Shown here one piece after another: positions 12,950 to 51,821 of a stretch of DNA of 51,821 bases (position 1 is the stretch's first letter; each line of letters starts with the position of its first letter). Location: sequence record KC710998; one strand, given 5' to 3'. Origin of the DNA: Shigella phage pSf-1. The notes under the pieces were generated by a model. It had not been told where the DNA came from. It searched no databases and worked only from the letters and a program-made list of their open reading frames with translations. Position numbers and translations under genes: made by a program.

Positions 12950-13655
12950 TTTGCGTTTGCTTCAAAGACGGCGCGAGCAAAACCGCGCGGTGTGAGGGAG
13001 CGGATCATCTTTGTGCGAGATGATTTTCCGCCAGTTTTGGCCCAACCAGGATTATCCTTGTCATCCTCTTTAGGAAGGATTGTTGCGCGCGGAGGAATAA
13101 CAAATCCGTTTCCAGTCCAAAGGCATGTTTTCTTAAAGTACCGATCCCGCGCCGGAATAATATCAGGGAAGTCGGGATGCTTATCATCTTCCGGCAGATA
13201 GCAGCATAATCGCACGGATGGAACGTATAATCAGGCTTACGCCATAACGTTGACAGCTTGCCTACAGGATTTTCGATCATGTAAGGAACGCCGAAATAAT
13301 CAGCGATATGCGCCGCGATTCTGCAAGTGTCGGCGGCCTCATCCTGGAACGCTGGATTCTCAAGGCGTTTTTTGGTCCAATGGCGAGATCCGCTATTTGC
13401 AAGGTCAGTGCACGGCGGAAATGCCATAATGAAATCAGGCTTGCCCCAATTTTCAAGTTTTGCGGTATATTTGAATAGCTCATCAATCCACACATTAACG
13501 TAAAAAATATTATCATGGATTATGCGCACTGATTGGTAGTCGCCATGATCTGCATCATCGTAATTAAAGCAAATGCATTTATATCCAGCATCAGCCCAAT
13601 CTTTAACGGCTTTACCAGATCCATCAAACAAAGAGAATATTAAACCTTTATACAT
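12946..13655 (-). CDS. C5-cytosine DNA methyltransferase-like protein, apparently frameshifted
   Basis: motif I LFDGSG, motif IV FPPCTDLANSG (PC dipeptide), motif VI ENPVG; coding continues in another frame (track ORFs 13005..13655 and 12946..13215). Confidence 0.45.
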
Positions 13656-13888
13656 TTCATCACCTCAAAACGGAAAGCATCTGGGCAGTTCGGATCAAAA
13701 TTGCAACCACAATCATTAACAATCATAGTTGGATCTGCAAATGCAGCGCCGCATTCATGGTCCATATCCATTTCACCCAACGCATCATCAAGCGTCCTGA
13801 TTTTATATGCGACTTCAAGCGCGGCCTCTTTATTCAGTCCGGCATCTTCTGCTTTTTGCAGTCGCTCAAAAAAACCGTCTTGACTCAT
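13640..13888 (-). CDS. hypothetical Cys-rich protein
   Basis: ORF track; Cys-containing CGCNFDPNCPD segment; overlaps start of methyltransferase-like gene. Confidence 0.4.
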   Translation of the reverse strand: MSQDGFFERLQKAEDAGLNKEAALEVAYKIRTLDDALGEMDMDHECGAAFADPTMIVNDCGCNFDPNCPDAFRFEVMKCIKV

Positions 13889-13998
13889 TTAATAAACTCC
13901 TTAACAACAGCAAGAATAATCACAAGCCCAGCAGTAAAAACAAGCAAACCGACAAGGCCAATCATAACACTAAATAAAACATCAAGCGTCTTAATCAT
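13885..13998 (-). CDS. small hydrophobic peptide (about 37 aa)
   Basis: ATG..TGA minus-strand ORF MIKTLDVLFSVMIGLVGLLVFTAGLVIILAVVKEFIK, single predicted TM helix; stop overlaps next start (ATGA). Confidence 0.3.
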   Translation of the reverse strand: MIKTLDVLFSVMIGLVGLLVFTAGLVIILAVVKEFIK

Positions 13999-14010
13999 TT
14001 ATTCACCATT

Positions 14011-14036
14011 GATAAAATGGGAGGCGGAAACCTCCC
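14011..14036 (-). terminator. putative terminator (minus strand)
   Basis: perfect GGGAGG/CCTCCC hairpin followed on minus strand by ATTTTATC. Confidence 0.4.
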
Positions 14037-14045
14037 ATTGGTTAA

Positions 14046-14273
14046 TCATACAGCCTTCCAGCTTTCAATAAACATGCTGTTTTCTTCCAGCAGTTTAATC
14101 AATTCTTCGCGCGTGTATTTGCGGATTTTACTACCTGGATGTGAGCCAACAACAAACACACCTTTACCACTCGTGATTGTTAACTGGTTGATTCCGCAAG
14201 ATTTATCCATCTTAATTGCGACGCGGTGATGTGCATCAACAGTGTTCATGATGTTAGTAACTTTAGCTTTCAT
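14046..14273 (-). CDS. hypothetical protein
   Basis: start at MKAKVTNIM with GAGGAT RBS; track ORF 14046..14336. Confidence 0.45.
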   Translation of the reverse strand: MKAKVTNIMNTVDAHHRVAIKMDKSCGINQLTITSGKGVFVVGSHPGSKIRKYTREELIKLLEENSMFIESWKAV

Positions 14274-14303
14274 TATGCAATCCTCATTATATTTGGTGTG
14301 ATA

Positions 14304-14346
14304 ACTATACCAGGTTTGAGAAATATTGTTTAGCAATTCGTGCTAT
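14304..14346 (-). promoter_or_regulatory. conserved promoter cassette (minus strand, variant ATAGCACGAATTGCTAAAC + TATAGT)
   Basis: same variant upstream half as cassettes at 19381 and 21896. Confidence 0.5.
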
Positions 14347-14447
14347 CAGTTGAAATAGCTATGGCGCTTTGCTCGCTTGCCTTCTCCGCCATAATGATCA
14401 TTTGCAACAGCTACCATCCAGGAATTATGGAATATTATTAGCTTCAT

Positions 14448-14729
14448 CTAATTAATGCCAACAACGTTAAAACTTACAGCTTTTGTTGCGCTAAATACAT
14501 ACGCTTCAACAGCATCACCAAATACACGAATTTTTCCATAGCCGTACTGCGCATTCATATTGCGCCAAACCGTCCTGTTAGAACAGAACGCGTTACCAGT
14601 CTTGATAAGATTATCCATCTCTTTTCTTAGGTCATGATAATCAAGCCAGAATCTATAGGCGCGTTGTTTAATGAGTTTCGCCTTGATTGCTTCGGCTGAG
14701 TTTTTAAAATCGCTGTTTTTGTATGCCAT
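14448..14729 (-). CDS. hypothetical protein
   Basis: ORF track; start overlaps stop of upstream gene (translational coupling). Confidence 0.45.
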   Translation of the reverse strand: MAYKNSDFKNSAEAIKAKLIKQRAYRFWLDYHDLRKEMDNLIKTGNAFCSNRTVWRNMNAQYGYGKIRVFGDAVEAYVFSATKAVSFNVVGIN

Positions 14730-14923
14730 TACACAACCTCCATAATAGTATTGAATCCACGCAGTTTGAAAGAGTTTCCATGTTTAACAACGTTCCATGT
14801 CAGGCCGGAGTGATACGCAACCATATCCTCAAGATCAATTGTGATGATAGCGCCTTTCTTAAAGATTCCTTTCTCGTGAGTGGTGTCACGCTGTACAACT
14901 TTAACATCAACTTGATTTTCCAT
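14729..14923 (-). CDS. hypothetical protein
   Basis: ORF track; GGA RBS in conserved leader. Confidence 0.45.
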   Translation of the reverse strand: MENQVDVKVVQRDTTHEKGIFKKGAIITIDLEDMVAYHSGLTWNVVKHGNSFKLRGFNTIMEVV

Positions 14924-14954
14924 TTTTAAATCCTCGTTCGTTGTCGATGCGCTT

Positions 14955-14998
14955 AATATACCAATCAGAGGCGCATCGGTTTTAACAAAAAGTGCTAT
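14955..14998 (-). promoter_or_regulatory. conserved promoter cassette (minus strand)
   Basis: motif + spacer, TATATT enclosed by 8-bp inverted repeat CGATGCGC/GCGCATCG. Confidence 0.55.
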
Positions 14999-15285
14999 TC
15001 AACAACAGATCCAGTTAAAGAGATAAGTGCTCTTGTGATCTTGTGTCTGCGATACTGACGCGCAACAACCGGAAGATTTTCACCGCTTTGATGACCGAAG
15101 CAGATCGGCAACTCACCCTCAAGAGAGCGGAAGCCGCCAAATTCAAGATCCCGCACTGGATTTGAGCGCCACGCTTCAATAAATCCGCGTTCGTCACGCG
15201 TGATATAGCGGTATATGTTAGGGAGGGGCAATTGTATCCCCTCAAAATCCACGGTATCGGTATAGCTGTAAAACTTAGAACTCAT
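14995..15285 (-). CDS. hypothetical protein
   Basis: start at MSSKFYSY overlapping stop of upstream small gene; track ORF 14995..15402. Confidence 0.4.
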   Translation of the reverse strand: MSSKFYSYTDTVDFEGIQLPLPNIYRYITRDERGFIEAWRSNPVRDLEFGGFRSLEGELPICFGHQSGENLPVVARQYRRHKITRALISLTGSVVE

Positions 15286-15427
15286 AATCAACAACTCCAA
15301 ACTCGTTGACGATTTGCGCCTTATAGAAGCCGCCATTTTTCGCAAGGTTGTAGCATGCCGCCACAGTTTCAAATTCGCGCACTTCCGGCTGGCTGTTTTC
15401 ATGTTCCCAGGTAATCAGAGTAACCAT
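15275..15427 (-). CDS. hypothetical small protein (50 aa)
   Basis: ATG after conserved leader CATCGACAACGAAAGCGAGGA; MVTLITWEHENSQPEVREFETVAACYNLAKNGGFYKAQIVNEFGVVDYEF. Confidence 0.4.
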   Translation of the reverse strand: MVTLITWEHENSQPEVREFETVAACYNLAKNGGFYKAQIVNEFGVVDYEF

Positions 15428-15460
15428 TTTCAAATCCTCGCTTTCGTTGTCGATGTGTGT

Positions 15461-15504
15461 AATGTACAGGAATACGAGGATTGAGTTTTAACAAAAAGTG
15501 CTAT
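15461..15504 (-). promoter_or_regulatory. conserved promoter cassette (minus strand)
   Basis: motif + 18 nt + TACATT + CATCGACAACGA leader. Confidence 0.55.
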
Positions 15505-15771
15505 TTAGTCCAGGAGTTCGATTTCGCGCTCGCCAGTTAACGGATCTTTGATCCAGAATCCGAGCGCCTCACCGTAAATACCGCCATAGAATCCAAGCGC
15601 CGACAGATCCTCACCTTTAACAAATACCAGATCCCCGCTACGGCTTACGTGAGATACGTTAACGATAACCGGAAAGGTGCGATCCTTAAATGCAGGCCGC
15701 ATGGCGTAACACCCGTTATTGAGCAAACGTGCTTTGCGCTTAACTGGAATAGGTGCATTGATTCGCGCCAT
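15505..15771 (-). CDS. hypothetical protein
   Basis: track ORF 15505..15810, start moved to MARINAPIP. Confidence 0.4.
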   Translation of the reverse strand: MARINAPIPVKRKARLLNNGCYAMRPAFKDRTFPVIVNVSHVSRSGDLVFVKGEDLSALGFYGGIYGEALGFWIKDPLTGEREIELLD

Positions 15772-15784
15772 CTTTATTTCTCCT

Positions 15785-16030
15785 TCATTGTTGATCGTGT
15801 TTAACGGCAATCAGAACACCACAGGACTCGTTAATGAATTTTGCCATTCGCTTATCATCACCAGCAGGGATTAGCGCATTACACTCGCGTTTGCTACTGA
15901 ATACCGTCACTTTATGGAATGATGCGAACGGCATCGACGGGAACTCTACTGTTTGCGTCAAGATCCGCAATCCCATCTTTTTGGCCCTTACCTGGGCCTC
16001 AGCGAGTTCAAAATCCACTTCATTAATCAT
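15785..16030 (-). CDS. hypothetical protein
   Basis: ORF track. Confidence 0.4.
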   Translation of the reverse strand: MINEVDFELAEAQVRAKKMGLRILTQTVEFPSMPFASFHKVTVFSSKRECNALIPAGDDKRMAKFINESCGVLIAVKHDQQ

Positions 16031-16299
16031 TTCTTGATCTCCTCGGCAATAAACTTCAGGACTTTGCGCAAAAACACTTCATTATTGATGGTCGCTGGCA
16101 ATTCCTCTTTCACTTCTTGCGGCAGGTAAACGTTGCCATGCCAGGTTAAGCAATCGTAGTTGATACGATAAGAGCAAAGCCACTCGCAATCGTTATCCGC
16201 TTCCCAAATGCAGAGTTGCAGAACATCGCCAAAATTCTCAACAGTCAGGTCCAGACCGTGACGCTTTGCAAAGTTGAAAGTGGTTTTGCTGATGTTCAT
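16027..16299 (-). CDS. hypothetical protein
   Basis: start MNISKTTF after conserved leader; track ORF 16027..16371. Confidence 0.45.
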   Translation of the reverse strand: MNISKTTFNFAKRHGLDLTVENFGDVLQLCIWEADNDCEWLCSYRINYDCLTWHGNVYLPQEVKEELPATINNEVFLRKVLKFIAEEIKK

Positions 16300-16337
16300 T
16301 TGCTTTCTCCTGATGGGTATCTCGTTTCGATGCGTGT

Positions 16338-16381
16338 AATGTACCCGATCAGGATGATTCAGTTTTAACAAAAAGTGCTAT
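16338..16381 (-). promoter_or_regulatory. conserved promoter cassette (minus strand)
   Basis: motif + 18 nt + TACATT + CATCGAAACGAG leader. Confidence 0.55.
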
Positions 16382-16974
16382 TTCTCAACTGGCGATTATT
16401 CCAACTATTCCATTAATCAGGAATAACAAGAATAACTCATTCGCGATCACCTGGATTGTGAGACTTTGAGTTTGGTCAATTTTAATCAAGTGATTAACTT
16501 TTTGTGTGGAGGGGATAGAGAAACGCGGCCCTCTTGCGTCCTTTCCGGCAATCCTGGCGCGCGCAATTGTTATCTTCTGTTATCGCTGTTATGCGTGTTA
16601 TTCCGGCGTGGAATCGCATAACAAAAAATAACAAGAAAAATCCATATAACATACTAAAAAATAAGGATTATTTATTTATATGTATCTATAAATTATTATC
16701 TGTTATGTGTGTTATGTGGGCGTATTGATACCAGATGTATTTTGGTGATTGTATGTGGTTGTGTGTTGGCTTGTATGTATATATGGGGTGGGGCGTATCC
16801 GCGCATTTTTAGATAACACGCAAAAACAACATTGATTTATAAGGAAAAGAACATGAATTTTGTTTCGTTCTTGAAACACAACATTGAAAAACTGCCAATA
16901 ACAATTAAAAACAGTTGACACGCCAGGAATGGTAAATGATAATGCAGCCACTGAATCACGAGGGGGGATAAAGC
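16382..16974. repeat. noncoding AT-rich island with TGTTAT/ATAACA iterons and TG-rich repeats (candidate origin or regulatory hub)
   Basis: four direct TGTTAT copies at 9-10 bp phasing (16568-16601), three ATAACA copies (16618-16651), TGTTATG x2 (16701-16715), GTGATTGT/TGTATGT repeats; no ORF of 60 aa or more. Confidence 0.6.
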
Positions 16975-17292
16975 ATGAGTGAGTCTGTGTTTACAAATGA
17001 GCTTCGCAAGGTTGCAATTGCTCTAGCCACTGGAGTACATGAATCTATCCAGATACCTGAAAGATGGGTAAGGCAGCACCTGGAGGGCAAGAAGTCAGCC
17101 AGCAACGCCGGATCATATCTGCGTCAGATTATGGGGCGCGTTCCAGAAGTGGCGGAGAAGGGGCGAGTTTCAGTATCAAAGAAACCTTACGGCCCTGATA
17201 GCGAATACTTCGGCGAAAATTACTTTGATGTGTCGATTGTTAATGCGCCGAATCGCAGGGTTTACAACAAGGCCGCGCTTGAGAAGCTGTAG
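16975..17292 (+). CDS. hypothetical protein (first gene of plus-strand early cluster)
   Basis: ATG with GAGGGGGGA RBS; a second frame stays open past the stop (possible indel). Confidence 0.45.
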   Translation: MSESVFTNELRKVAIALATGVHESIQIPERWVRQHLEGKKSASNAGSYLRQIMGRVPEVAEKGRVSVSKKPYGPDSEYFGENYFDVSIVNAPNRRVYNKAALEKL

Positions 17293-17445
17293 CGAAAGCA
17301 AAGCGCCAGGTTGCTGAGTCAATGCTTAAAGTCTCACCAAGCCTAGCGAACTACTCGCCAGATGAATATGAAACACTTGCTAAGGCGATCGCAGATTTTC
17401 ACGCGATCATTAAAGAAACATACCTTAACGATGAGGAACAATAAA

Positions 17446-17694
17446 ATGAGCAAACTTACGCTTGATGAACTGATGGAAAAAATTGATGAAGTGGGCTTTA
17501 ACAAGCTGGTTGATTTCCACTTGACCGCATGTGAAATCACCGCGCAGGAGTTTAGCGACATGCTATCTGATGCGAGCGAGATTTACACAAGCCTATGCGA
17601 AAGAGAAATCAAAGTCATTGAAATTGAGATGCCTGGAGATCCGGTATTCGCAAGGCTTGTGGCTGCATTCGATGAGGAGAATGTTGGACTCTGA
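17446..17694 (+). CDS. hypothetical protein
   Basis: ATG 17446 with GAGGAA RBS; track ORF 17362..17694. Confidence 0.45.
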   Translation: MSKLTLDELMEKIDEVGFNKLVDFHLTACEITAQEFSDMLSDASEIYTSLCEREIKVIEIEMPGDPVFARLVAAFDEENVGL

Positions 17695-17700
17695 CCGGAA

Positions 17701-17745: not shown

Positions 17746-17776
17746 ACCTCATCGAAACGAGATTGAGGAAAACAAA

Positions 17777-20672: not shown

Positions 20673-20783
20673 ATGGCTAACAAGATCGAGTTTTTTAAAG
20701 CGGTAGACAAGATTGATGCGCGCCAAGTTTCTTTGCTATCCAGTCAATTGACGGTGAGGATATGGCATACAACGTTATCATAG
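20673..20783 (+). CDS. hypothetical small protein (36 aa; may be fused with next ORF if an indel is present)
   Basis: ATG with GAGGA RBS after cassette. Confidence 0.3.
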   Translation: MANKIEFFKAVDKIDARQVSLLSSQLTVRIWHTTLS

Positions 20784-20932
20784 AAAAGAATCGCAGCGTA
20801 AACGAGCTTATCATGCTTGTGGTTAAGTTCGGGAAATGTGGGTGGCTTGATTCTGGAGTAGAGCCGCGCCGCCGCGACATGCAAGATCCAGTTCTGCTTT
20901 ACACGCTTGTAATTGAAGGAGGCAGCAAATGA
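20762..20932 (+). CDS. hypothetical small protein (56 aa)
   Basis: ATG with GGTGAGG RBS; below track cutoff. Confidence 0.3.
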   Translation: MAYNVIIEKNRSVNELIMLVVKFGKCGWLDSGVEPRRRDMQDPVLLYTLVIEGGSK

Positions 20933-22950: not shown

Positions 22951-23238
22951 ATGGCTAAAAGCAATCGTAAAATGTTGATTAACGCATTCGAAAAGGCGGC
23001 GCTTGAGCGTGGTTGGAATGACTCATTTCACACGGCAAACTGTATCCGCCGTTACGGATTCAAGAATTGCCGCTCATGGGCGCGTGAAATGGCTTCATGG
23101 TATGATCTTGATGCGCATTACCTTGATATGGATTGCGCCCTGGTTGAAATGATTGAGCAGGCCGCATTAGAGGATCGACCATTAACGCAATCTGATTTTG
23201 ACGATTTTGTTCGCGATGAAATCTATTACATGAGCTAA
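22951..23238 (+). CDS. hypothetical protein
   Basis: AAGGAGGAAA RBS preceded by UUCG-loop hairpin. Confidence 0.45.
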   Translation: MAKSNRKMLINAFEKAALERGWNDSFHTANCIRRYGFKNCRSWAREMASWYDLDAHYLDMDCALVEMIEQAALEDRPLTQSDFDDFVRDEIYYMS

Positions 23239-25053: not shown

Positions 25054-25574
25054 ATGGCTAAAAACGTTGAGCCAGCAGTAAAGGCTTGCAATTTTAAAAA
25101 ACTATATAATAAGCAATATGGCGATATAGCAAAAATGACAAAGGCGCACAAGTACACGCCGGAACAGGTATTTGATCTGGCTGTTCGTTACTTTACGTGG
25201 GCTGAGGAAAACCATATACAGGCTGCGGAAACGGCATCCTTTCAGGGTGACGTATACGAAAGCAAGATTCACAAGCCGCGCGTGTTCACCTTAAACGGAT
25301 TCCGATTATTCGCTGGCCTTTCTGCCTCCGTACTTGAAAAATGGCGACGCGAGCAGGATTTAGCGATGTTATGGACTTTATCGACGGCGTTGTTTACGAG
25401 CAAAAATTCCAGCTTGCCGCAAACAATATTGTTAACGCCGGATTCATTGGTAAGGAGATCGGCATTGAAAAGCCAGCCACCGTTACCATTGAGAATAACA
25501 CAAGCGCCAGCGTTGACGCTGTAACGGCGGAGGAAGTCAAAGAGGCGGTAATTGACATTCTGGAGAAGATATAA
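25054..25574 (+). CDS. terminase small subunit (apparent frameshift near 25357)
   Basis: N-terminal part ...KPRVFTLNGFRLFAGLSASVLEKWRREQ in one frame, C-terminal part GFSDVMDFIDGVVYEQKFQLAANNIVNAGFIGKEIGIEKP in another (track ORFs 24883..25524 and 25341..25574); AAGGAGGG RBS. Confidence 0.55.
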
Positions 25575-27210: not shown

Positions 27211-28490
27211 ATGAGTAAATCACGAATCGTTAAGGCTGATGGCTATAACGAGATCTTTAAAGGCGAGAATTGCAAATCGCGAGTAGAGCAACCATTCTAC
27301 ATGCAATCAATGCCATACAAGACACTTGCTGACTTTTACGAAAAAGACGGCCTGGCAAAAAGGGTTATTGACGTAGTACCAGAGGAAATGGTTTCCCCTG
27401 GCTTCACGGTTGACGGCGTGGCAGACGAGGCAGCATTCCGTTCTTTGTGGGATGAGAAGCGATTGAATGCAAAAATTATTGATGCGCTTTGCTGGTCGCG
27501 TTTGTTTGGTGGATCTGCAATCATTGCTCTTGTTCAGGATGGGCGAGCGCTCAAATCACCTGTAAAGCCTGGTGCCATGTTGGAGGATGTGCGAGTTTAC
27601 GATCGCTATCAGATTCGCGTTGAAGCGCGCGAAACTAATCCACGCAAGGTTCGCTATGGTGAGCCAGTGCTTTACACTGTAACGCCAGGCGGAGACTTGC
27701 CGGAATACCAGGTACACTACACGCGAGTTTGCATTATCGACGGTGAGCGGATACCTAACGCAAAGCGACGCAGCAATGATGGCTGGGGTGAGTCAGTTCT
27801 TAACAAGCGACTTGTTGAGGCTATTGTTGATTATAACTATTGTGAAACATTGGCAACGCAATTATTGCGGCGGAAGCAACAGGCGGTATGGAAGGCTAAA
27901 GGACTCGCTGACTTGTGCGATGATGAAGAAGGTGTTAGCGCGGCACGTCTGAGGCTTGCGCAGGTTGACGATGAGGCGGCGTAGGCAGGGCCATTGGTAT
28001 TGATGCTGAGGATGAGGAATATGATGTTCTTAACTCTGACATTAGCGGCGTTGATTCTTTTCTGGAAAAGAAAATGGATCGCATCGTTTCCCTTTCAGGT
28101 ATTCATGAAATCATCCTGAAAAATAAAAACGTTGGCGGAGTTAGCGCAAGCCAAAACACGGCGCTTGAAACATTCTATAAGCTGATTGAACGAAAACGCG
28201 TTGAGGATTACAAGCCTATTCTTGAATTTCTATTGCCGTTCATCATTAGTGAGCAGGAGTGGAGTATTGAGTTTTCACCTTTGAGCGTACCTAGCGATAA
28301 AGATCAGGCTGAAATTCTGAATAAGAATATCGACTCAATCAGCAAGGCTATTGATGGTCAGTTCCTTGATGTTGAAGAAGCGCGCGACACGTTGCGAGCA
28401 ATCGCCCCAAGCGTTAAACTAAAGGACACTAATAAAATCAAGCTGCCGGAGCCAACTGAGCCGGAGCCAGGCACGCAGGGGAATGAGTAA
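27211..28490 (+). CDS. portal protein (apparent frameshift near 27970-27985)
   Basis: two adjacent track ORFs (27211..27984, 28074..28490); second frame is open back to about 27975, so one indel joins them; position between TerL and head morphogenesis gene. Confidence 0.5.
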
Positions 28491-30924: not shown

Positions 30925-30984
30925 TATATTTGGGGTTATCATGAGTGATTATTCAGTCATTGTTGGCGCTGAGTCGCAGGGTGC

Positions 30985-31374
30985 ATGGTCGATTCTTCAA
31001 TAATGGTGATTAACGGATCTTTCGTGTGCGGAGATGAATTTATTGAGCCAGGTAAGATTGTGCGACTATCACATATAACAAATGGATACAAAATAGCAAG
31101 TGTTAATGGGGATCTCGTTATTGGTGTGGCAGTAAGGCCGCCGTACTCGTGCATATATGAGGAGGGTGATCCCGTTAGTGTAGTTAGTAGAGGTAGTGTG
31201 TGGTGCTTAACTTCTGAGAGCGAAGCGCCAGAATACGGAGATAAGGTGTTTGTAACGCAAGATGGTGATGCGTCATACAGTGAAGGCGACTTACTGAGCG
31301 GTTGGATCTTTACTGGCGAACATGTAAAGGTTGATCATGATTCATATATTGTCGGGGTAAGCATTAGCGCATAA
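30985..31374 (+). CDS. capsid-associated structural protein (paralog 2)
   Basis: ORF track; similarity pattern to 30383..30895. Confidence 0.4.
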   Translation: MVDSSIMVINGSFVCGDEFIEPGKIVRLSHITNGYKIASVNGDLVIGVAVRPPYSCIYEEGDPVSVVSRGSVWCLTSESEAPEYGDKVFVTQDGDASYSEGDLLSGWIFTGEHVKVDHDSYIVGVSISA

Positions 31375-35185: not shown

Positions 35186-35503
35186 ATGTCAAAAATGAAA
35201 TTGACGATTGGGCCGCTTCCTGACTTTAAATTACCAGTGAAATTTGCAATGCCTAACGGAGAAGATCAAACAATTATCTTCACAGTTCGCCACCGCAAAA
35301 CAAGTGAGATTCACGAGCGCTACACGTCAGATACTCCAATGAGCGATGTTGAAATGATCACCTTCCTTGCTTCCGGTTGGAATCTTGATGATGAATTTAA
35401 CGAAGAAAATATTAAACAGCTTCTTGATTACTACCCAGCGACAGCAATCGGATTAACTAGCGCATACATGAAAGCGCTTGCGGGGCAGCGAGTAAAAAAC
35501 TAA
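35186..35503 (+). CDS. tail assembly chaperone G-like
   Basis: 105 aa, AAGGGGAAAG RBS; ends at slippery heptamer. Confidence 0.55.
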   Translation: MSKMKLTIGPLPDFKLPVKFAMPNGEDQTIIFTVRHRKTSEIHERYTSDTPMSDVEMITFLASGWNLDDEFNEENIKQLLDYYPATAIGLTSAYMKALAGQRVKN

Positions 35504-35814
35504 AAAGGGCGGTTTACCTGTTTTATCAGAAACCGCCGACAGATGCAGAGCTTGAGGCCGTTGGCCTTACAAGGGCAGACTATGAAGGAGAAGATCCGCC
35601 AGAGGTTATATTTGATGAAAGCATGATGCAATCATGGGATATATTTTGCGCAATGCAAACGCAATGGAGATGTTCTGGCGGTGGCGCTTACGGGTTTGAT
35701 TATAATGTCTTGCCTATGCTTTTTGAGATTTACAAGGTTGAGGATCGCGAGATGGCGCTAAACGACTTGCGAATCATGGAGCAAAAAGCACTTGAAATGA
35801 TGCATTCAAAATAA
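35186..35814 (+). CDS. tail assembly chaperone GT-like fusion (programmed -1 frameshift product)
   Basis: -1 frame is open from slippery site A_AAA_AAC (35494..35500) through ORF 35623..35814. Confidence 0.5.
35494..35500 (+). promoter_or_regulatory. -1 ribosomal frameshift slippery heptamer A AAA AAC
   Basis: XXXYYYZ heptamer immediately before G stop codon. Confidence 0.5.
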
Positions 35815-44000: not shown

Positions 44001-44543
44001 GCATTAACAGCGAAGTTTGGAGATGTTGAATCAGCGCTTACAGAAAAACTTGATTCATGGGCTGGCGTTAATGGAGTTGGAGCACAGTACGCAATGAAAT
44101 TGGGATTGACCTACAACGGGCAGAAGTACAGCGCCGGAATGGTCATGCAGTTATCAAACAGCGCTCAAGGTTTGATTTCACAAATCCTTTTTGATGCTGG
44201 CAGATTTGCTATCATGACGAGTTCTACCGGAGGTTCGTATACATTGCCTTTTGTGGTCGAAAATAACCAAGTTTTCATCAATAGCTTGTTAGTTAAGGAT
44301 GGATCAATAAACAATGCGAAGATTGGAAACTTTATTCAGTCAAATAATTGGGATGGTAACAATGGTTGGCACATAAATAAAAATGGCGATGCGTATCTAA
44401 TGAACGCAACAGTTAGAGGTTCACTTTACGCATCAAACGGAAATTTTTCTTTTAATGGTACTAACAATACAGTTGTTATAAATAACAATGGTATAACTGT
44501 AAACCTTCCTAATGGCGGTCGCGTTGTTGTTGGTGTTTGGTAA
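41091..44543 (+). CDS. tail tip / host-specificity protein (lambda J-like)
   Basis: 1150 aa; N-terminus GSKGGSSKPYVPKEMEDNLISINKIKILLAVSDGE resembles J family start; GGTGAAAAAG RBS. Confidence 0.7.
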   Translation: MAENMITGSKGGSSKPYVPKEMEDNLISINKIKILLAVSDGECDPDFTLRDLYLDDVPVIADDGTVNYQGVKAEFRPGTQTQDYIQGFTDTSSEVTLARDITTSNPYVISVTNKTLSAIRIKMLMPTGIKQEDNGDLVGVKVTYAVDMAVDGDSYKEVLLDTIEGKTRSGYDRSRRIDLPAFNDRVLLRVRRVTADSASSRVTDLIKLQSYAEVIDAKFRYPLTGLVYVEFDSELFPNQIPNISIKKKWKLINVPSNYDPVLREYHGSWDGTFKKAWSNNPAWVLYDIITNQRYGLDQRELGVQVDKWSLYEAAQYCDQKVPDGKGGTEPRYLCDVVIQSQIEAYQLIRDICSIFRGMSFWNGESLSIVIDKPRDPSYIFTNDNVVDGDFQYTTASEKSMYTQCNVTFDDEQNMYQQDVEGVFDTEAALRFGYNPTSITAIGCTRRSEANRRGRWILKTNLRSTTVNFATGLEGMIPSIGDVIAIADNFHSSNLKLNLSGRVMEVSGLQVFVPFKIDARPGDFIIINKPDGKPVKRTISKVSGDGKTIELNIGFGFEVKPDTVFAIDRTDIALQQYVVTSIGKGDDDDEFTYSITAVEYDPNKYDEIDYGVNIDDRPTSIVQPDTMAAPENVQISSYSRIVQGASVETMVVSWDKVPYASLYEMQWRKGDGNWLNTPQTANKEIEVEGIYSGNYQVRVRSVSASGSTSPWSRIVTASLTGKVGEPGAPVNLTASDNEVFGIRVKWGMPEGSGDTAYIELHQSPDGTAENSSLLTLIPYPQYEYWHGTLPAGHVVWYRIRSVDRIGNVSSWTDFVRGMASDDVEAVLGDILDKIFDTEAGKDLKENAIDSANKIKDQAQSIIQNALANDTDVRIMRKENGKRKAEFRQSIQLIASETEARVTAMTQLKAEFDDEITSEVTRLDQAIATESETRATAIEELKSQIGDDIQGQLTRVEEAIANETEARVSADTALTAKFGDVESALTEKLDSWAGVNGVGAQYAMKLGLTYNGQKYSAGMVMQLSNSAQGLISQILFDAGRFAIMTSSTGGSYTLPFVVENNQVFINSLLVKDGSINNAKIGNFIQSNNWDGNNGWHINKNGDAYLMNATVRGSLYASNGNFSFNGTNNTVVINNNGITVNLPNGGRVVVGVW

Positions 44544-44547
44544 TGCA

Positions 44548-44572
44548 AAGGGGGCTTTTGCCCCCTTTTTTA
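44548..44572. terminator. bidirectional rho-independent terminator between convergent genes
   Basis: GGGGGC-tttt-GCCCCC flanked by A-run and T-run. Confidence 0.65.
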
Positions 44573-45535
44573 ATACATATTTGGAGTGAATGGTATAGGC
44601 ATTGAAATATTTATATTAAATGGAAATTGAGCGCCGCTCTGAGTAGAATAGTTACCTACCCTTGTTCCTGGGGTACTTCTTACGTTGCCACCACTCATGC
44701 ATACGCCCTTGTATCGAATGTTATTATATCCACCCGTAACTCTACATATTGTACCTGTTCTCAGTATTGGGAAAAATCCACCGCACCACTGCCAACCATC
44801 ATTTATCGCCATAGTCCCGCCAAGAACAAAAGGACGTCTAACGCTTGAGAAAACTATCTGACCAGCAGGATTGCTCATAGTGATTCCTGGTCCTGGAGGT
44901 GGTGGAGTGTTATTAAATATTACGAGTTGCACGTATACGCTCGCGCCAACGTCATCAATTCCGTTATAGTTTGCATCTCTGCACCATATCGTGTTGCCGT
45001 CAGATTCCAGAGTTACGTTTGGGTTATCCCACATTCCGAAAGGAACACCCTGGACTGGCAACTGAGCCTGACCGTTAACCTGGATTCCTCCAACAAATGC
45101 CGCGCTCATTAACCTGGCGTTGTTCGGTATTGATGCAAAGTCCGTTGAGTCGCTAACAAGTATCCCCTGATTACCCGCCTGAGCGGGGAGTATTTCGTAG
45201 CAGTTGCCGTAAAACCTCATTCTCCTTCCCCTGCTCCCGTTAAAATTACCTACCGTTATTCGACCAGTTGCGTCATTTACCTTTTGAAAGCTGGTTAAAT
45301 AATAAACTTCCGGTATGTAATCCATATCGTCGATATAAACGGCTTGAGATGGAAGGCAAAAAGCCGTTGATCCTGGACTCATTTGCAAACCAAAATCAAA
45401 TACTGATCCAGATGAATCAACTCCGTCGGCTTGTATAGGTCCACACCATGATGGGGCGCGAAGTCCCGATGTTATCTCCATTGCCGGACGACCGTCATTT
45501 AGGTTTATATATATTCCCTGCCCCATAATTACCAC
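44570..45535 (-). CDS. putative receptor-binding protein (inference from context)
   Basis: 321 aa, Gly/Asn/Ser-rich; co-oriented with and directly downstream of lipoprotein gene; convergent with J. Confidence 0.35.
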   Translation of the reverse strand: MVIMGQGIYINLNDGRPAMEITSGLRAPSWCGPIQADGVDSSGSVFDFGLQMSPGSTAFCLPSQAVYIDDMDYIPEVYYLTSFQKVNDATGRITVGNFNGSRGRRMRFYGNCYEILPAQAGNQGILVSDSTDFASIPNNARLMSAAFVGGIQVNGQAQLPVQGVPFGMWDNPNVTLESDGNTIWCRDANYNGIDDVGASVYVQLVIFNNTPPPPGPGITMSNPAGQIVFSSVRRPFVLGGTMAINDGWQWCGGFFPILRTGTICRVTGGYNNIRYKGVCMSGGNVRSTPGTRVGNYSTQSGAQFPFNINISMPIPFTPNMY

Positions 45536-45759
45536 TCTTTAGTTTTGATTGATACCTTGCCGCTAAAGTTGCCCTGGACGTCATCGGATGACAGACCTTT
45601 GAATCGCATATCTATTTCGCCAGCCGGAATCTTCTGACCATCAACTAATCGCACCATGCAAGATCCGTAAGTGTAAGTAACACAGTCGCCATTTTTAAGA
45701 TTCTGAGCACAACCAGTCAGGGCAACGGCTGCAATCAAAACGGCGATTAACTCTTTCAT
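45529..45759 (-). CDS. small lipoprotein, Llp/Cor-like superinfection-exclusion candidate
   Basis: signal peptide + lipobox LTGC at residues 14-17; 76 aa; AAGGAG RBS. Confidence 0.5.
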   Translation of the reverse strand: MKELIAVLIAAVALTGCAQNLKNGDCVTYTYGSCMVRLVDGQKIPAGEIDMRFKGLSSDDVQGNFSGKVSIKTKEW

Positions 45760-45790
45760 CTTGGTATCTCCTTCGTTGTTGTTGGTTGCA

Positions 45791-46259: not shown

Positions 46260-47321
46260 ATGAATAAGTTTATGGCGTACACCAGCGAAGAAATGAGCAA
46301 TGAGCTTTATCACGATCCAGAAGCGTGGACGGCTGATTATGTTAGTGGATCAAGCCTTGCAGAGATTTACAGCACATGCCCGGCGGCGTGGAAGTTCAAG
46401 CCGCGCGACGACAAGAGCAAGGCGCTAGTTTTCGGTACGCAGTCGCATACCAACTTTGAAAGCAAGGAGCTTTTCGAAAAAACATATCGCCGTGCGCCAG
46501 CGCCAGAAGACTTTAAGGATCTGATAACCAGCCAAACGGCGCTTGCTGCAAAGCTAAAATCATTTGGCCTGAAAGGTACAACAGGAAAGACTTACCCTGA
46601 ACTTATAAAAATGTTGGTTGACTGCGGAGAAGACCTTAACGTCATGTGGTTAATCGACATGATCGCAGAAAGTCAGGCCAGGGCTGACGGCGTGCAGCTA
46701 ATCGAATCTAAAGATTACGATGCGTGCGTGGCAATGCGCCAGGTTCTGGAATCAATACCTGAACATAACGCATGTATGAATAGCAAGACAGCACAACGTG
46801 AATTATCGTTGTTCGGTGAAATCAACGGCGTAAAAGTCAAAGTGCGATGCGATCACGTTGACGTAACGAAGAACGTAACAGCAACTTTGATTGATGGTTA
46901 CGATGAAAAAGGACAGCCGATTTGCCGCGATATTATTTATCCAGAGGCGATTGTGATCACTGACTACAAAACAACGATGAGCGCTAATCCGGCTGAGTTT
47001 ATGCGCCTGGCCTACAATCACGGCTATTATCTGAAAATGGCGTTGCAATGTGATTTATTCAGGAAAGCGTATCCAGAAGAAAAGCGACCTATAGTTGTGC
47101 GCCTGTTAGCGCAAGAGAAGAAAGAGCCTTACTTGCCGTTAGCTTTCCGCATGAACAGCGAGCAATTGAAGATCGGGCGCATTCAGTACATGAGCGTAAT
47201 TAACCAGTTTGCCATGTGCCAGCAACATGACGTTTGGCCTTCGTATTCAAACGGTGAGCCGGAGGTTTGCCTTGATACTCCTGATTGGGTGCGACGCCAG
47301 TTTAAGCAATATCTTATTTAA
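46260..47321 (+). CDS. PD-(D/E)xK family exonuclease (recombination exonuclease candidate)
   Basis: ITDYKTT motif (RecB/Cas4-like nuclease motif); upstream of Erf and SSB. Confidence 0.5.
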   Translation: MNKFMAYTSEEMSNELYHDPEAWTADYVSGSSLAEIYSTCPAAWKFKPRDDKSKALVFGTQSHTNFESKELFEKTYRRAPAPEDFKDLITSQTALAAKLKSFGLKGTTGKTYPELIKMLVDCGEDLNVMWLIDMIAESQARADGVQLIESKDYDACVAMRQVLESIPEHNACMNSKTAQRELSLFGEINGVKVKVRCDHVDVTKNVTATLIDGYDEKGQPICRDIIYPEAIVITDYKTTMSANPAEFMRLAYNHGYYLKMALQCDLFRKAYPEEKRPIVVRLLAQEKKEPYLPLAFRMNSEQLKIGRIQYMSVINQFAMCQQHDVWPSYSNGEPEVCLDTPDWVRRQFKQYLI

Positions 47322-47402
47322 ACAGCACAAATAGCTAAACAAATGAAAAATGCGGTGTTATAATTCACCGCATAAGTTAACAGCAAGAGTAAGGAAATAA
47401 AC

Positions 47403-47681
47403 ATGGAAAACAAACAAGTGTCAGAGGTGGCAGTTCATATCAATAATTTTGCAACTGGCATGGCTATGTTGCTTCGTGATTTTGTAGCGCCGCTTGATCC
47501 AACGGCAGGCGCAGAAGAGATGGAGTACATCAGAAAAGTAATTGATGCAGTCGATAACGTCGTACTTGTTGCAACAATGAGCGAAGACAACGAGGAAGCA
47601 ATCAAGGCGGTAAAAGAAAGTTCTGATCGCATGATGGAAAATCTGATTAAATTACACACCAAAGAAGAAACAAAACATTAA
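47403..47681 (+). CDS. hypothetical protein
   Basis: ORF track; AAGGAAATAAAC RBS. Confidence 0.4.
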   Translation: MENKQVSEVAVHINNFATGMAMLLRDFVAPLDPTAGAEEMEYIRKVIDAVDNVVLVATMSEDNEEAIKAVKESSDRMMENLIKLHTKEETKH

Positions 47682-47726
47682 CAGCAATAAGGCGGCTAAA
47701 GCCGCCATTAATTACGGGAATTAATC

Positions 47727-48383
47727 ATGAAACTATCAGAGCAATTCGACAAGGTTTTACCAGCACTGCATAAGGCGCGCAGTTTGTTTGTAAAGGTTAA
47801 GAAGGATAAGCAAAATACACACTTAAAAAACCGTTACGCGACACTTGATTCCGTTCTTGATGCAATCACTCCAGCACTCAACGATAACGAGCTAATGTTG
47901 ATGCAGGATATGATTGAAAGCGAACAACCTAACAGAATCAAGGTTGAGACAACAGTTCTTCATGTTTCCGGTCAGTGGGTTAAATTCTATGCTGAATTAC
48001 CAATAGTTAAAAACGATCCTCAAGGTGTCGGATCTGCATTCACATACGCGCGTCGTTATGCAGCCGCCGCAGCATTTGGCTTAAGCCAGGCAGACGATGA
48101 CGCACAGATTGCCGTTAAATCTGCAAACGACTGGAAGCGTGACATTGAGAAATGCGAAAGCGTAAACGAATTGCAAGAAGTGCTTAAATCAGCATGGAAG
48201 GCAAGCGATCCGGCAAGCAAGCAGGTAATTAAAGAGCATTACGAAAAACGCAAGGCAGAGCTTGAGATCGGAAAAGCACGAGGATTTAATCCAGCGCAAC
48301 CAAAGCAAAATCTTGCATCACCAGAAGTTGACACAAAAAACGACGAGCAAGTAAAATCACAAAGTATCACTGATTTTGAATAA
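47727..48383 (+). CDS. erf: Erf-like single-strand annealing protein
   Basis: size and composition; context exonuclease-Erf-SSB. Confidence 0.5.
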
Positions 48384-48390
48384 TTGACAT

Positions 48391-48412
48391 GGGGCGCTTG
48401 CGCCCCTTTCTT
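48391..48412 (+). terminator. putative terminator
   Basis: GGGGCG-cttg-CGCCCC followed by TTTCTT. Confidence 0.45.
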
Positions 48413-48427
48413 ACAGGAGTATAAAAC

Positions 48428-48880
48428 ATGCATATTATTACTGGTGAGATCCGAAAAGAGCCGCGAGTAAAGCAAATGCCTAACGGCAGCACACTTTATG
48501 TGGTTGAACTTTCAGAGCGATACAAAGATAAAGATGGAAACTGGCAATATACAAACTACAGTTTCTTTTTTAATGCTAAAACAGAAGGACTTAAGGGTTG
48601 GTATGATGAGGCGTTCCAGGTTGGCAAGGTTATTTCTGTATCTTGCGACACGCTGCGCATTGAAACGCGTGAATATAACGGAAAGATGTATTCAAGTTTA
48701 ATGCCAGGAGGATTTGCAAATCTTATCTTCAGTCAGCGCGGGGAAAGTCAGCAACAATATCAGCAGCGAACGCAAGGGGGATGGGGCCAACCACAACAAC
48801 AGAATCAACCGCAACAACCGCAACAGCCAAGACAAAGCAATCAACCTCCTATGGACTTTGACGACGACATTCCTTTCTGA
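48428..48880 (+). CDS. ssb: single-stranded DNA-binding protein
   Basis: C-terminal acidic tail DFDDDIPF identical to canonical SSB tip; Gln/Pro/Gly-rich linker. Confidence 0.8.
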   Translation: MHIITGEIRKEPRVKQMPNGSTLYVVELSERYKDKDGNWQYTNYSFFFNAKTEGLKGWYDEAFQVGKVISVSCDTLRIETREYNGKMYSSLMPGGFANLIFSQRGESQQQYQQRTQGGWGQPQQQNQPQQPQQPRQSNQPPMDFDDDIPF

Positions 48881-48885
48881 TCAAC

Positions 48886-48908
48886 AAAGGGGCATTACGC
48901 CCCTTTTT
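48886..48908 (+). terminator. rho-independent terminator
   Basis: GGGGC-attac-GCCCC + T5. Confidence 0.55.
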
Positions 48909-49152
48909 CACTTTCAGCCATCCCAAGCACGGCAATAACCTTAACAGCAATTCGCTTTGCAAGTTCAGTTTGATGAGCGTTAAGTTTTCCAGTGGTCATT
49001 ATTGACAACATTCCGCTCATACTTCCAAGCCCGTTAAAATCTGACATTGCCGATTTCATGATTGATATTGGTGAGTGACCTTCATCAGCTATTGTGTGCG
49101 CTCTCTCTGACAAGTCTTTAACTACCTGATCAATTCCTTCACTTTTCGTCAT
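48895..49152 (-). CDS. hypothetical protein
   Basis: ORF track. Confidence 0.35.
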   Translation of the reverse strand: MTKSEGIDQVVKDLSERAHTIADEGHSPISIMKSAMSDFNGLGSMSGMLSIMTTGKLNAHQTELAKRIAVKVIAVLGMAESEKGA

Positions 49153-49630
49153 TTGCTTTTCCTTCAGGAGTTGATTGCTGTTCTGGCATTACAGGCCACG
49201 GGCTAATTGATTCCCTTTCTGCTACTGCCTTTTCAGGTTCAATTCCTAAAAACTTTCCTACAAACTCACCAACAAAATTTGAGCTATCGCTTACATAAAC
49301 ATGCATCCTGTCTAGATCTGCAACAGTAACGCTATTTGGTGCGATCATGATCCTCTGTTGGTGAAAACCGATATACATCACATTAGCCGGACGCTCAAGA
49401 GTTCCCATATTTGGCGCAATTACGCCCATTATCCAACAATAATGAATGTTGCCATCAAGAGGTTCACATCCTGCGTTAAGCCAGTTTACTTTCTGGTGTG
49501 GGAATGCCATTGATGAATCAGTAGCATCACGCCGTAACGACCATTTAACGCCGCCAATCTCAATGATTTGTTTCGGCCTCATTCCGTTGAATTGAGTCAC
49601 GCCAGCGCCATTTTGATTAATGTTTTGCAT
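49139..49630 (-). CDS. hypothetical protein
   Basis: ORF track. Confidence 0.4.
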   Translation of the reverse strand: MQNINQNGAGVTQFNGMRPKQIIEIGGVKWSLRRDATDSSMAFPHQKVNWLNAGCEPLDGNIHYCWIMGVIAPNMGTLERPANVMYIGFHQQRIMIAPNSVTVADLDRMHVYVSDSSNFVGEFVGKFLGIEPEKAVAERESISPWPVMPEQQSTPEGKANDEK

Positions 49631-49644
49631 ATCGGTTAACCTTT

Positions 49645-49968
49645 TTACATTGATTTCATTTTACGCAATGCGCAGATACAAGCGGCAGCAAGATCGGTTA
49701 ATTCTTTCTCTATGCCATGATGCGAGCCGTCTGCCTTTTCGGTCATTAGCTCTTTGTATTCCATTTCTACAATCAACATTAAGCCGCCTGGCTTGTCAAT
49801 GTGCGCGTCCCAGGTCTTAGGATAGTGCTTAGTTCTTTCCATAACACTTCCCATAACTGAATCATGTTTGCTATCTCGCTCATAATCATCATCATGATCA
49901 TCACTCCCTATTGAAACTCGCGGCAAATGAATGCGCGGTATTTTATAGCCAGCATAACGGATCTTCAT
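49645..49968 (-). CDS. hypothetical protein
   Basis: ORF track. Confidence 0.4.
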   Translation of the reverse strand: MKIRYAGYKIPRIHLPRVSIGSDDHDDDYERDSKHDSVMGSVMERTKHYPKTWDAHIDKPGGLMLIVEMEYKELMTEKADGSHHGIEKELTDLAAACICALRKMKSM

Positions 49969-50017
49969 TATCTCGCCCTCTTGATGAAAAGCGCCCCGAA
50001 AGGCGCTTGATTTATTA

Positions 50018-50719
50018 TCAGCCGCAACAGCCAGTAGGCGGAGTCTGAGGAGTAGGCAACTTGAAGTTTACCAATTGCTCTACCTGGTTGATTTTGCAAT
50101 TCAGTGCGGCGGTCTGGTTTGCCTGAGAAAGAGCAAAACGAGCCTCCTGCAACTGAGCTTTCATATCGCAAATCAGAACAGCCTGAGAATCAGCGAACTG
50201 TTGACGAATCAGATCTCGCGTTGCGTTACCTTGTCGCTCAATGTTCAGGTTAGTCTCGCAGCAACATCTCTCCGCTGCAATCTGTGCCTGATAGGAACGC
50301 TCAAGAGCATTAACATCAGCAGCATTAATTGCAGCAACCGTCTGGTTAGTACCGCTAACAATCGCGGTATTCAGTCCGGCGAAACCTTGCACCGATGCAA
50401 GCAGGTTTTGCGTATTCTGGCTGGTAATGCCGTTAAAGGTTGATGCGGCGGAGCGCTCAACGGTAAGGTTTGTGGAGTTTTGGCCTTGCAGAGTTTGCAG
50501 CCCCAGGTTGTTTACGCCTGTCTGGATGTTGTTAATACCATCAAGAACAGCGTTAGCACCGACAGCAACAGCAGCACCATCACCACCATAACCGCCGCGA
50601 CCATTAAAGCCGTTACCAAACCATGACCCAATCAGGCCACCAACAGCACCGCCAAGACCAGCCGCGCCAGCTTCGCCACCAAAACCACCACCAGTAGGGA
50701 GTAAAGTCATATCTGACAT
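50018..50719 (-). CDS. glycine-rich protein with Cys cluster (function unknown)
   Basis: N-terminal GGGFGGEAGAAGLGGAVGG...GRGGYGG low-complexity region, internal CCC and C-terminal GCCG; AGAGGAA RBS. Confidence 0.45.
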   Translation of the reverse strand: MSDMTLLPTGGGFGGEAGAAGLGGAVGGLIGSWFGNGFNGRGGYGGDGAAVAVGANAVLDGINNIQTGVNNLGLQTLQGQNSTNLTVERSAASTFNGITSQNTQNLLASVQGFAGLNTAIVSGTNQTVAAINAADVNALERSYQAQIAAERCCCETNLNIERQGNATRDLIRQQFADSQAVLICDMKAQLQEARFALSQANQTAALNCKINQVEQLVNFKLPTPQTPPTGCCG

Positions 50720-50854
50720 AGTAAATTCCTCTTTGACGTTAAAAAAATTAAAAAAAAGTTTGCAACATTTATGTTACGACAAAGAGTATGCGCCCAATTA
50801 CCATGAATAGATATAAAATATTTGTAAGCAATATGTAAGCAACTAGCATAAAGA

Positions 50855-50883
50855 CGAAAAAAAGCGCAGCATGAGCCGCGCTT
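50855..50883 (-). terminator. rho-independent terminator downstream of tail fiber gene
   Basis: AAGCGC...GCGCTT hairpin, followed on minus strand by T-run. Confidence 0.55.
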
Positions 50884-50898
50884 GAGTTAAAAATATTG

Positions 50899-51821
50899 TT
50901 ATTTATTGAGCAGTGCAGCAACAGCCGCCTTTAATTCGTCTATCTCCTTTTGCTGGTTTTCGATCATTCCTCCCATGTAAACCATAGCGCAAGCCATATC
51001 AGCCATGATCACGTTGTTGTCAAGAGCAAGCGTATCATCTGCTTTGTCAACCACAATTTGACGATCTACATATTCTTCACCTTCATCATTAACGCCTATA
51101 ACATCTGCAAAAATGTCCCCGCCAGGTATTAGCTTTACATATTCAGGATCTATTTTTAGCAGATCCTGAGCTATCATCCCAAATCGCTGAATGTTGCTTC
51201 CATTGTATTTAAACATTGTCGGAAGCCACTGCATAACGCGATCATAGCTTTCCTTTCCATCTGTATAAATTATATCGTGCTTCAAATCTCTGTCAGAGTT
51301 AGCGGCCTTTTGAAAAATGAAATTTCCACTTGATGACCATGTGGTTATATCGTTTGAGGCTGGCTGAAACTGGAAGTTACAGAAAAAATTACCATCACCA
51401 CGAAGTCTTAATGAGCAAAAAGGCCAAGCATTATTTCCCTGTGGGATAAGACCCCAAGTTGCACGAATTGGATAACCACCAGTTGATTGTGTACCCCATG
51501 AAAGGCCAGGCGCCCATCCACCGTCATTGTTAGGGATAATCTCGCCCCAAACAAGAGCATTACCCCAATAGTTAGGATCATCCATCCATTTGTTGGGTTT
51601 TGCCAGTGTATTGAGCAGAATGCGTTCTGCCGTCAGGGTAAAACTTGTGCATATAGCTTTGCACACCATGTTTATACAGTTCAATCCCAAACGACTCAAT
51701 TTGTGCAGCACCGCCTCTGATCAAACCAGCGATAGCGTAATCGCTATACCAGTTGTAACGACTTACACCAGTCCATGAGTTCATTGGTGGATTCATGATT
51801 GAATATAGTTGTGACGGATTG
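50899..51821 (-). CDS. tail fiber protein, C-terminal part with S74-type intramolecular chaperone domain (frame disrupted near 51580-51715)
   Basis: SDRDLKHDIIYTDG... autoproteolytic chaperone-like motif in ORF 50899..51711; upstream ORF 51578..51796 is in frame with the minus-strand ORF at 1..1208 if window ends are joined. Confidence 0.5.

Follow-up and report, generated by a model that had tools for sequence, protein, structure and literature searches.

Recurrent single-base gene breaks in a Hanrivervirus genome are very probably uncorrected consensus deletion errors

About 70% of the errors in nanopore consensus sequences made with the default model lay in the Dcm motifs CCAGG and CCTGG, with homopolymer lengths as the second source (Wick, Judd & Holt 2019, PMC6591954). 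Homopolymer errors on this platform are chiefly deletions, and reading is poorer in G/C runs than in A/T runs (Delahaye & Nicolas 2021, PMC8486125). Here we analyse a stretch of phage DNA of 51,821 nucleotides (the window), in which ten genes appear broken. These apparent breaks are, with high probability, uncorrected consensus deletion errors of about twenty single bases in the genome of a virulent Hanrivervirus, and the genes would be intact in the real phage.

The window is a complete Hanrivervirus genome (Drexlerviridae, Tempevirinae; T1-like), and the phage type is virulent, an ordinary T1-like E. coli phage. It is circularly closed, with position 51821 abutting position 1 and both ends joining, and it has no host flanks. 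Nucleotide identity to Henu8, herni, slyngel, KarlJaspers and vB_EcoP_06 is 94-97.5% with genome-wide collinearity; it extends over >80-95% of the window against several ICTV-classified genomes, as expected of a Hanrivervirus. The structural and replication genes of such a genome should all be single ORFs, but ten genes are split in the window. Since these split ORFs are repaired by adding one base per site (two in the fibre), we put this discrepancy down to sequence errors.

Frame breaks were judged against intact orthologues in the relatives. The broken genes are the following:

2859..4903, + strand: DNA helicase, 679 aa long in the relatives, with one C missing at 4527 (CCC to CC); its pieces end at 4541 and 4903
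8880..9296, + strand: u-spanin, G absent at 9271 (GGAGGC to GGAGC), the extra G being present in four references
12274..12491, - strand: hypothetical gene of 73 aa, like herni gp19 / bas06_0053, with its break at 12430 within CCAGG (CGCCAGGC to CG-CATGA)
12946..13655, - strand: DNA methyltransferase (236 aa; PHROG 757), broken at 13201/13202 (GCCAGC to GCAGC)
16975..17444, + strand: DUF7174 protein (damhaus gp51, 156 aa), frame lost at 17286 (GG to G), the extra G being present in three references
20673..20932, + strand: 87-aa hypothetical gene (bas06_0073-like), broken at 20717 (GG to G)
25054..25574, + strand: TerS, the small terminase subunit of 173 aa (Pfam GP3_package), with its break at 25354/25355 within CCAGG (GCCAGG to GCAGG)
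27211..28490, + strand: portal protein of 426 aa (Phage_portal_3), with one G missing at 27976 (GGG to GG)
30941..31374, + strand: minor capsid / cement protein of 144 aa, matching positions 1-154 of Pfam XM1_gp53_minor_capsid; C absent at 30977 within CCAGG
50899..51821, - strand: lateral tail fibre, 3' part (731 aa gene in slyngel), two C absent at 51583-51587 (TCCCACCCCATT to TCCATCCATT)
1..1208, - strand: lateral tail fibre, 5' part; the gene crosses the window junction and starts at 1208

Each break is a base that is absent from the window and present in all aligned relatives (2 to 11 genomes per site, mostly five of five references), so that the existence and the positions of the missing bases are seen directly. 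The extra base is found in five of five references at the helicase site (C) and in 11 of 11 relatives at both the TerS (C) and the portal (G) sites. With a single base added at each site, and two in the fibre, the proteins reach full length: helicase 679, methyltransferase 236, TerS 173, portal 426, cement 144, DUF7174 156 and fibre 731 aa. Identity to the references is then 90-99% for eight of the nine genes whose frame is restored (97% for the helicase with its C inserted); the bas06_0073-like gene reaches only ~70% identity to the reference protein, and for this reason the break at 20717 is the least certain case. Before repair, the portal pieces match positions 3-215 and 261-356 of Pfam Phage_portal_3, and the methyltransferase is divided, on the minus strand, into ORFs 13655..13203 and 13200..12949. 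In the cement protein the deletion affects the N-terminus, where it throws the first 12 codons out of frame, and in the u-spanin it changes the last codon and the stop and takes one base out of the terminator stem. Searches of the methyltransferase against Pfam and PDB sequences gave no match, PHROG 757 'DNA methyltransferase' being the sole one, and the label 'C5/Dcm-like' therefore comes from the KarlJaspers annotation only.

The initial annotation had named frame breaks in the methyltransferase, TerS, portal and tail fibre, all of which prove genuine when set against intact orthologues, although the fibre break, placed near 51650, in fact lies ~65 nt away. Its two possible cases, at 17292 and 20740, correspond to the breaks at 17286 and 20717, and the recurrence that it described extends to four sites outside its list (4527, 9271, 12430 and 30977), giving with its own six the total of ten broken genes. 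A tblastn comparison of every reference stop-to-stop ORF with the window revealed no further break in a real gene. Scan junctions at 16320, 16740, 17760, 21960, 22950, 24330, 29250 and 50730 were discarded as intergenic or reference-specific indels, and an indel at 13682, at the 3' end of a 74-aa gene, was rejected as a break because the references disagree among themselves there.

Over the whole window we counted ~21 private single-nucleotide indels, 20 of them deletions and one an insertion (P=2e-5). About half are intergenic, and some of these may be real polymorphisms:

9551..9552, no strand assigned: private intergenic deletion, CCC to CC, in a terminator hairpin
12216 (T run), 12916, 12930, 16743, 16791, 16928, 45928 and 46112: other private intergenic indels

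A change of A4 to A3 at 22951 was left out as a natural polymorphism because it is common to one public contig. The deleted base is G or C in 14 of the 18 countable cases (P=0.004). All ten coding deletions fall in short G/C runs, which make up 15.5% of the genome (P~1e-8); the affected runs are mostly 2-3 bases long. Three deletions lie within CCWGG Dcm sites, against 0.15 expected (113 sites; P=5e-4), and three more indels directly adjoin such sites (12916, 12930 and 16928, the last beside CCAGG); those at 12916 and 12930 are well aligned and are not homopolymer changes. Ten of the 14 G/C deletions convert GCC to GC (P~0.009), an observation that we counted for a possible footprint of cytosine methylation considered below. 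Each of five reference genomes has one to four private indel events; these lie between genes or have lengths in multiples of 3, and none breaks a gene. The indel load of the window is far above chance or natural variation.

The abnormality is confined to the indel channel. Private substitutions number 363 in the window and 336-413 in the references, and the spectrum is the same. No substitution excess was found at CCWGG, although nanopore errors related to Dcm often are substitutions: window-private changes there (3/69 sites) are not commoner than in the references, and an apparent bias to the inner C/G of CCWGG, obtained against the majority consensus, vanished when the count was limited to changes private to the window. 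The out-of-frame 3' parts of the broken genes are open to the usual stop, with no extra stops in the restored frame, and their differences from relatives are mainly synonymous (synonymous to non-synonymous, 14:3 in the portal, 25:2 in the fibre and 3:0 in TerS), so that the relaxed selection expected 3' of the breaks in pseudogenes is not seen.

Public collections hold the intact genes. The identical TerL protein is encoded in 86 blocks of public contigs, and in the six such contigs examined the 173-aa TerS and the 426-aa portal are intact in every one. The truncated portal has no record in a public protein collection. Searches of IMG/VR, JGI metagenomes and GTDB genomes gave 0 occurrences of the TerS 27-mer with the deletion, compared with five of the intact 27-mer in IMG/VR, and an exact search of the same three collections did not find the deleted portal sequence. 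The broken versions are absent from the four public collections searched, and no other public contig carries any tested break.

At least three of the broken genes, helicase, TerS and portal, should be ones that a virulent phage cannot do without. Decay in a defective element, which the initial annotation had kept as an alternative, would make the frameshifts genuine and the window a cryptic element or a non-viable metagenome variant. Slippage in short runs also yields natural frameshifts, so that sequence alone is no proof of error, and a break would be tolerable in each of the small accessory genes (12430, 17286, 20717), any of which could individually be a genuine pseudogene. However, the window is a complete circular copy of a virulent phage type without host flanks, and TerS, portal, helicase and tail fibre are broken together in it while all other genes are intact. 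Its substitution load and spectrum are those of viable relatives, its 3' parts keep mostly synonymous differences and a clean restored frame, and neither a 20:1 deletion bias nor an association with CCWGG is expected under neutral decay. With the tested breaks found in no other public contig, and TerS and portal intact in six of six, we consider decay very unlikely. Recoding, in which programmed ribosomal frameshifting or transcriptional slippage would rebuild the full-length proteins, does exist in this phage type, since the tail assembly chaperone carries a genuine-looking programmed -1 site, A_AAA_AAC at 35494-35500. This is the only site in the window that has the features of recoding: a slippery heptamer is present at none of the ten breaks (TerS reads GCG AGC AGG and the portal GAT GAG GCG), mostly +1 shifts would be needed, at unrelated sequences in ten different genes, and every relative encodes the same proteins in a single unbroken frame. 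Recoding is therefore almost certainly not the explanation of the breaks.

The missing bases might also be real in a lineage that multiplies although its TerS, portal, helicase and fibre genes are split, which would call for complementation by a co-infecting helper or for unrecognised, efficient +1 recoding at G/C runs, or, in a milder variant, the error positions might be the footprint of phage-encoded cytosine methylation beyond CCWGG; we find these proposals hardly credible. Errors of another homopolymer-prone platform in place of nanopore (454 or Ion Torrent), or of a consensus built at low coverage or from mixed strains, are unlikely but deserve more weight, given that the coding deletions are all contractions of G/C runs, which flow-based chemistries produce as well. 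Flow-chemistry errors, though, cluster in long runs, and here mainly 2-3-base G/C runs are affected despite 223 A/T runs of 5 or more in the genome. The non-homopolymer indels beside CCWGG at 12916 and 12930 point to a methylation-sensitive read-out, which argues against flow platforms.

Consensus deletion errors thus remain our explanation, in agreement with the initial annotation, which had proposed systematic indel errors of the uncorrected long-read type: the indels occur in this assembly alone, deletions account for 20 of the 21, they favour G/C runs and are enriched at Dcm motifs, and one-base repair restores the genes. Base-calling or consensus building would have dropped one base from short G/C runs (CC, GG, CCC, GGG), and also at or beside Dcm-methylated CCWGG sites; a base dropped within a gene would then make its reading frame appear as two adjacent ORFs. 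We infer that the platform was nanopore and that methylation played a part. The split genes are an artefact, not a novelty, and imply no new biology. Used in its present form for gene calling, for protein databases or for surveys of pseudogenes or recoding, the record would yield ten genes wrongly annotated as truncated or split, and it is therefore unfit for these purposes. Such errors can be recognised and mended by comparison with close relatives even where reads are lacking, the diagnostic signals being private single-nucleotide deletions, G/C runs, CCWGG sites and synonymous-only divergence kept 3' of the breaks, and the error positions may hint at methylated motifs.

Three described systems can be set beside the window. 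The -1 frameshift of siphovirus chaperones (lambda G/GT type) likewise presents overlapping ORFs in two frames with continuous protein, but the ten breaks lack a slippery sequence and are absent from the relatives, where the genes are single ORFs. The gene order and content of the 51.8 kb window are those of Hanrivervirus (Henu8, herni, slyngel, KarlJaspers = Bas06, vB_EcoP_06, damhaus), and slyngel and many metagenomic contigs encode a TerL protein identical to its own. The window differs from the named phages in an additional HNH endonuclease gene (10103-10615), in the DUF6453/lipoprotein module at 44350-45706, and in the single bases that it lacks in ten genes, none of which is broken in those phages. 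Finally, compared with published nanopore errors in natively methylated DNA from a Dcm-positive enterobacterial host, the window has no CCWGG substitution excess and its runs, mostly of only 2-3 bases, are shorter than in the classic long-homopolymer problem, two features that we counted against a nanopore origin; the window resembles those errors in the dominance of deletions, in the preference for G/C runs and in the enrichment at CCAGG/CCTGG.

The window matches Hanrivervirus phages of Escherichia, Salmonella and Shigella (Henu8, herni, slyngel, KarlJaspers (Bas06), vB_EcoP_06, damhaus and G29-2) genome-wide at 94-97.5% identity, as determined by megablast of three large pieces against the phage collection. 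Hanrivervirus (Drexlerviridae, Tempevirinae) comprises T1-like virulent siphoviruses. Since the slyngel alignment leaves the window end at slyngel 29348 and picks up again at window base 2 (slyngel 29350), the window is one complete, circularly closed genome. Its ends carry no terminal duplication and reflect an arbitrary cut inside the lateral tail fibre gene, which crosses the junction 51821/1 on the minus strand and whose 5' part is for this reason absent from the ORF lists. In the same gene, at 603-611 (-), there is an in-frame gap of ~63 nt (21 codons) with respect to the slyngel and G29-2 fibres; with a length divisible by three, this gap probably represents natural variation in fibre length, not an error. 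About 20 records within MG065640-MG065687, named 'Campylobacter phage' with Campylobacter jejuni as host, share 93% identity with the window and probably bear wrong host or organism labels or derive from contaminants.

The initial annotation had described recurrent single-base frame disruptions at four sites or more, and named two further possible ones. We compared the window by blastn with five full reference genomes, tabulating all indels and printing local alignments, and used three extra partial references for two regions of poor coverage. All six breaks proved real, each arising from one or more bases absent in the window, and the observation is confirmed and widened to ten genes.

Frame breaks in the window: position; gene; change from relatives to window; product after repair and identity to references. 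Repair inserted one base at each position, and two at 51583. Breaks are marked "initial" (named in the initial annotation) or "additional".
4527; 679-aa DNA helicase; CCC->CC; 679 aa, 97%; additional
9271; spanin, last codon; GG->G; 132 aa, 89%; additional
12430; 73-aa gene; within a CCAGG site; 90%; additional
13201; methyltransferase, 12946-13655 (-); GCCAGC->GCAGC; 236 aa, 98%; initial
17286; DUF7174 gene; GG->G; 156 aa, 97%; initial
20717; 87-aa, bas06_0073-like gene, the weakest case; GG->G; residues 1-83 of 87 aligned, ~70%; initial
25354; small terminase subunit (TerS); GCCAGG->GCAGG; 173 aa, 99%; initial
27976; portal; GGG->GG; 426 aa, 99%; initial
30977; 144-aa minor capsid/cement protein, N-terminus; within a CCAGG site; 144 aa, 94%; additional
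51583-51587; tail fibre (-); TCCCACCCCATT->TCCATCCATT, two bases missing; 731 aa, 92%; initial, ~65 nt from the coordinate first assigned

In annotated relatives the orthologues are single ORFs (TerS 522-552 nt, portal 1281 nt, Dcm-like methyltransferase 711 nt, lateral tail fibre 2196 nt), and base insertion returned all the broken genes to one frame at reference length; the bas06_0073-like gene stands out by its low identity. The two pieces of the portal match consecutive positions of the Pfam profile Phage_portal_3 (3-215 and 261-356). For the cement protein, the Pfam family match of the intact form begins at profile position 1, which identifies the longer start as genuine. When every stop-to-stop ORF of the references was systematically searched against the window by tblastn, no further breaks in real genes emerged.

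The alignments show directly that bases are absent relative to all relatives, and in a specific pattern. By the same count, private indel events (seen in one genome only) number just 1-4 per genome in the five references, all intergenic or multiples of three, whereas the window has ~21 private 1-nt indels, ~10 of them within genes. A change at 22951 was excluded because one public contig has it too, and some of the intergenic indels may be real polymorphisms. Deletions outnumber insertions 20 to 1 (P=2e-5), and G or C accounts for 14 of the 18 deleted bases that could be counted, in a genome of 44% G+C (P=0.004). The coding deletions contract G/C runs in 10 of 10 cases, such runs making up 15.5% of the genome (P~1e-8). 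Three deletions fall inside the 113 CCWGG sites, against 0.15 expected (P=5e-4), and three more indels abut such sites, at 12916 (CCAGGC->CCAGG), 12930 (CCTGGC->CCTGGCG) and 16928; the first two, which are well aligned, are not homopolymer changes. Among the 14 G/C deletions (for example those at 12430, 13201, 17286, 20717, 25354, 27976 and 30977), 10 read GCC->GC on one strand, where 37% would be expected (P~0.009). This context bias in the error process extends past CCWGG, and could come from k-mer preferences of the base-caller or from further cytosine methylation. Private substitutions number 363 in the window and 336-413 in the references, with the same spectrum, and no excess at CCWGG was found in the window compared with the references. 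The abnormality is confined to the indel channel.

Genuine decay of the phage genome, which the initial annotation had kept as an alternative, is very improbable. It would have helicase, TerS, portal and tail fibre broken simultaneously while the remainder of the genome is intact, and the first three are expected to be indispensable for a virulent phage. Beyond the breaks, the out-of-frame 3' segments stay open up to the normal stop codon, and their differences are mainly synonymous (synonymous:non-synonymous 14:3 in the portal, 25:2 in the fibre, 3:0 in TerS and, against KarlJaspers, 4:0 in the methyltransferase), so no relaxed selection is detectable. Further, proteins identical to the window's large terminase subunit (TerL) occur in 86 blocks of public contigs, and all six TerL-identical contigs inspected (from metagenomes, read-archive assemblies and GenBank) encode intact TerS (173 aa) and portal (426 aa), with the extra base at both sites. 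A search of the public protein collection found no record of the truncated 257-aa portal; the deleted TerS 27-mer has 0 occurrences in IMG/VR, JGI metagenomes and GTDB genomes, and the intact one occurs 5 times in IMG/VR. That the breaks are recoding sites is more improbable still: all ten lack a slippery sequence and relatives encode the same genes as single ORFs, which leaves recoding unsupported.

Systematic indel errors, the reading preferred in the initial annotation, are strongly supported by the private, deletion-biased indels in G/C runs, the normal substitutions and the restoration of genes by repair. Most likely, these would be consensus errors left uncorrected in assembling natively methylated DNA from nanopore-type long reads; from the pattern we infer both the sequencing platform and a causal part for methylation. 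Dcm is present in E. coli hosts, and the phage encodes one Dam-like methyltransferase plus the second, annotated as Dcm-like. Even when intact, the latter (counterpart in KarlJaspers: bas06_0055) matches no Pfam family and no PDB sequence, PHROG 757 being its sole match, and 'Dcm-like C5' is an annotation conveying a putative class and target motif. With default models, CCAGG/CCTGG Dcm motifs contained ~70% of the consensus errors in nanopore sequencing of an enterobacterial genome, homopolymer length errors ranking next (Wick et al. 2019, PMC6591954). Deletions dominate homopolymer errors, and reading is poorer in C/G runs than in A/T runs (Delahaye and Nicolas 2021, PMC8486125). Two caveats apply to a nanopore-type origin: the affected runs are mostly just 2-3 bases long, and CCWGG substitutions are not in excess. 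The breaks are an assembly artefact within an otherwise ordinary Hanrivervirus genome.

Regions without reference coverage carry intact genes, for an HNH endonuclease, a DUF6453 protein and a phage lipoprotein. The first lies in a 516-nt insertion at 10102-10617 (-), absent from all five references, whose one ORF (10103..10615, 170 aa, Pfam HNH_3, E=3e-19) encodes a free-standing homing-type endonuclease adjoining the second helicase gene at its stop codon. The other two (321 and 76 aa) form a module at 44350-45760 (-), located downstream of the gene for the J-like tail tip. The module is unlike the closest Hanrivervirus genomes, and its identity to the Shigella phages pSf-2 and ISF002 is just ~86%, which suggests mosaic exchange, the cassette probably serving superinfection exclusion or being receptor-related.

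In the tail assembly chaperone region (35186-35814, +), a genuine-looking programmed -1 site, A_AAA_AAC, occupies 35494-35500, where the chaperone ends. The ORF 35186..35503 (+) terminates ...GT A_AAA_AAC TAA, a canonical X_XXY_YYZ heptamer, and the -1 frame is open over 35461-35814 (G/GT type); annotations of relatives list the two parts as separate genes. This site looks quite unlike the ten breaks.
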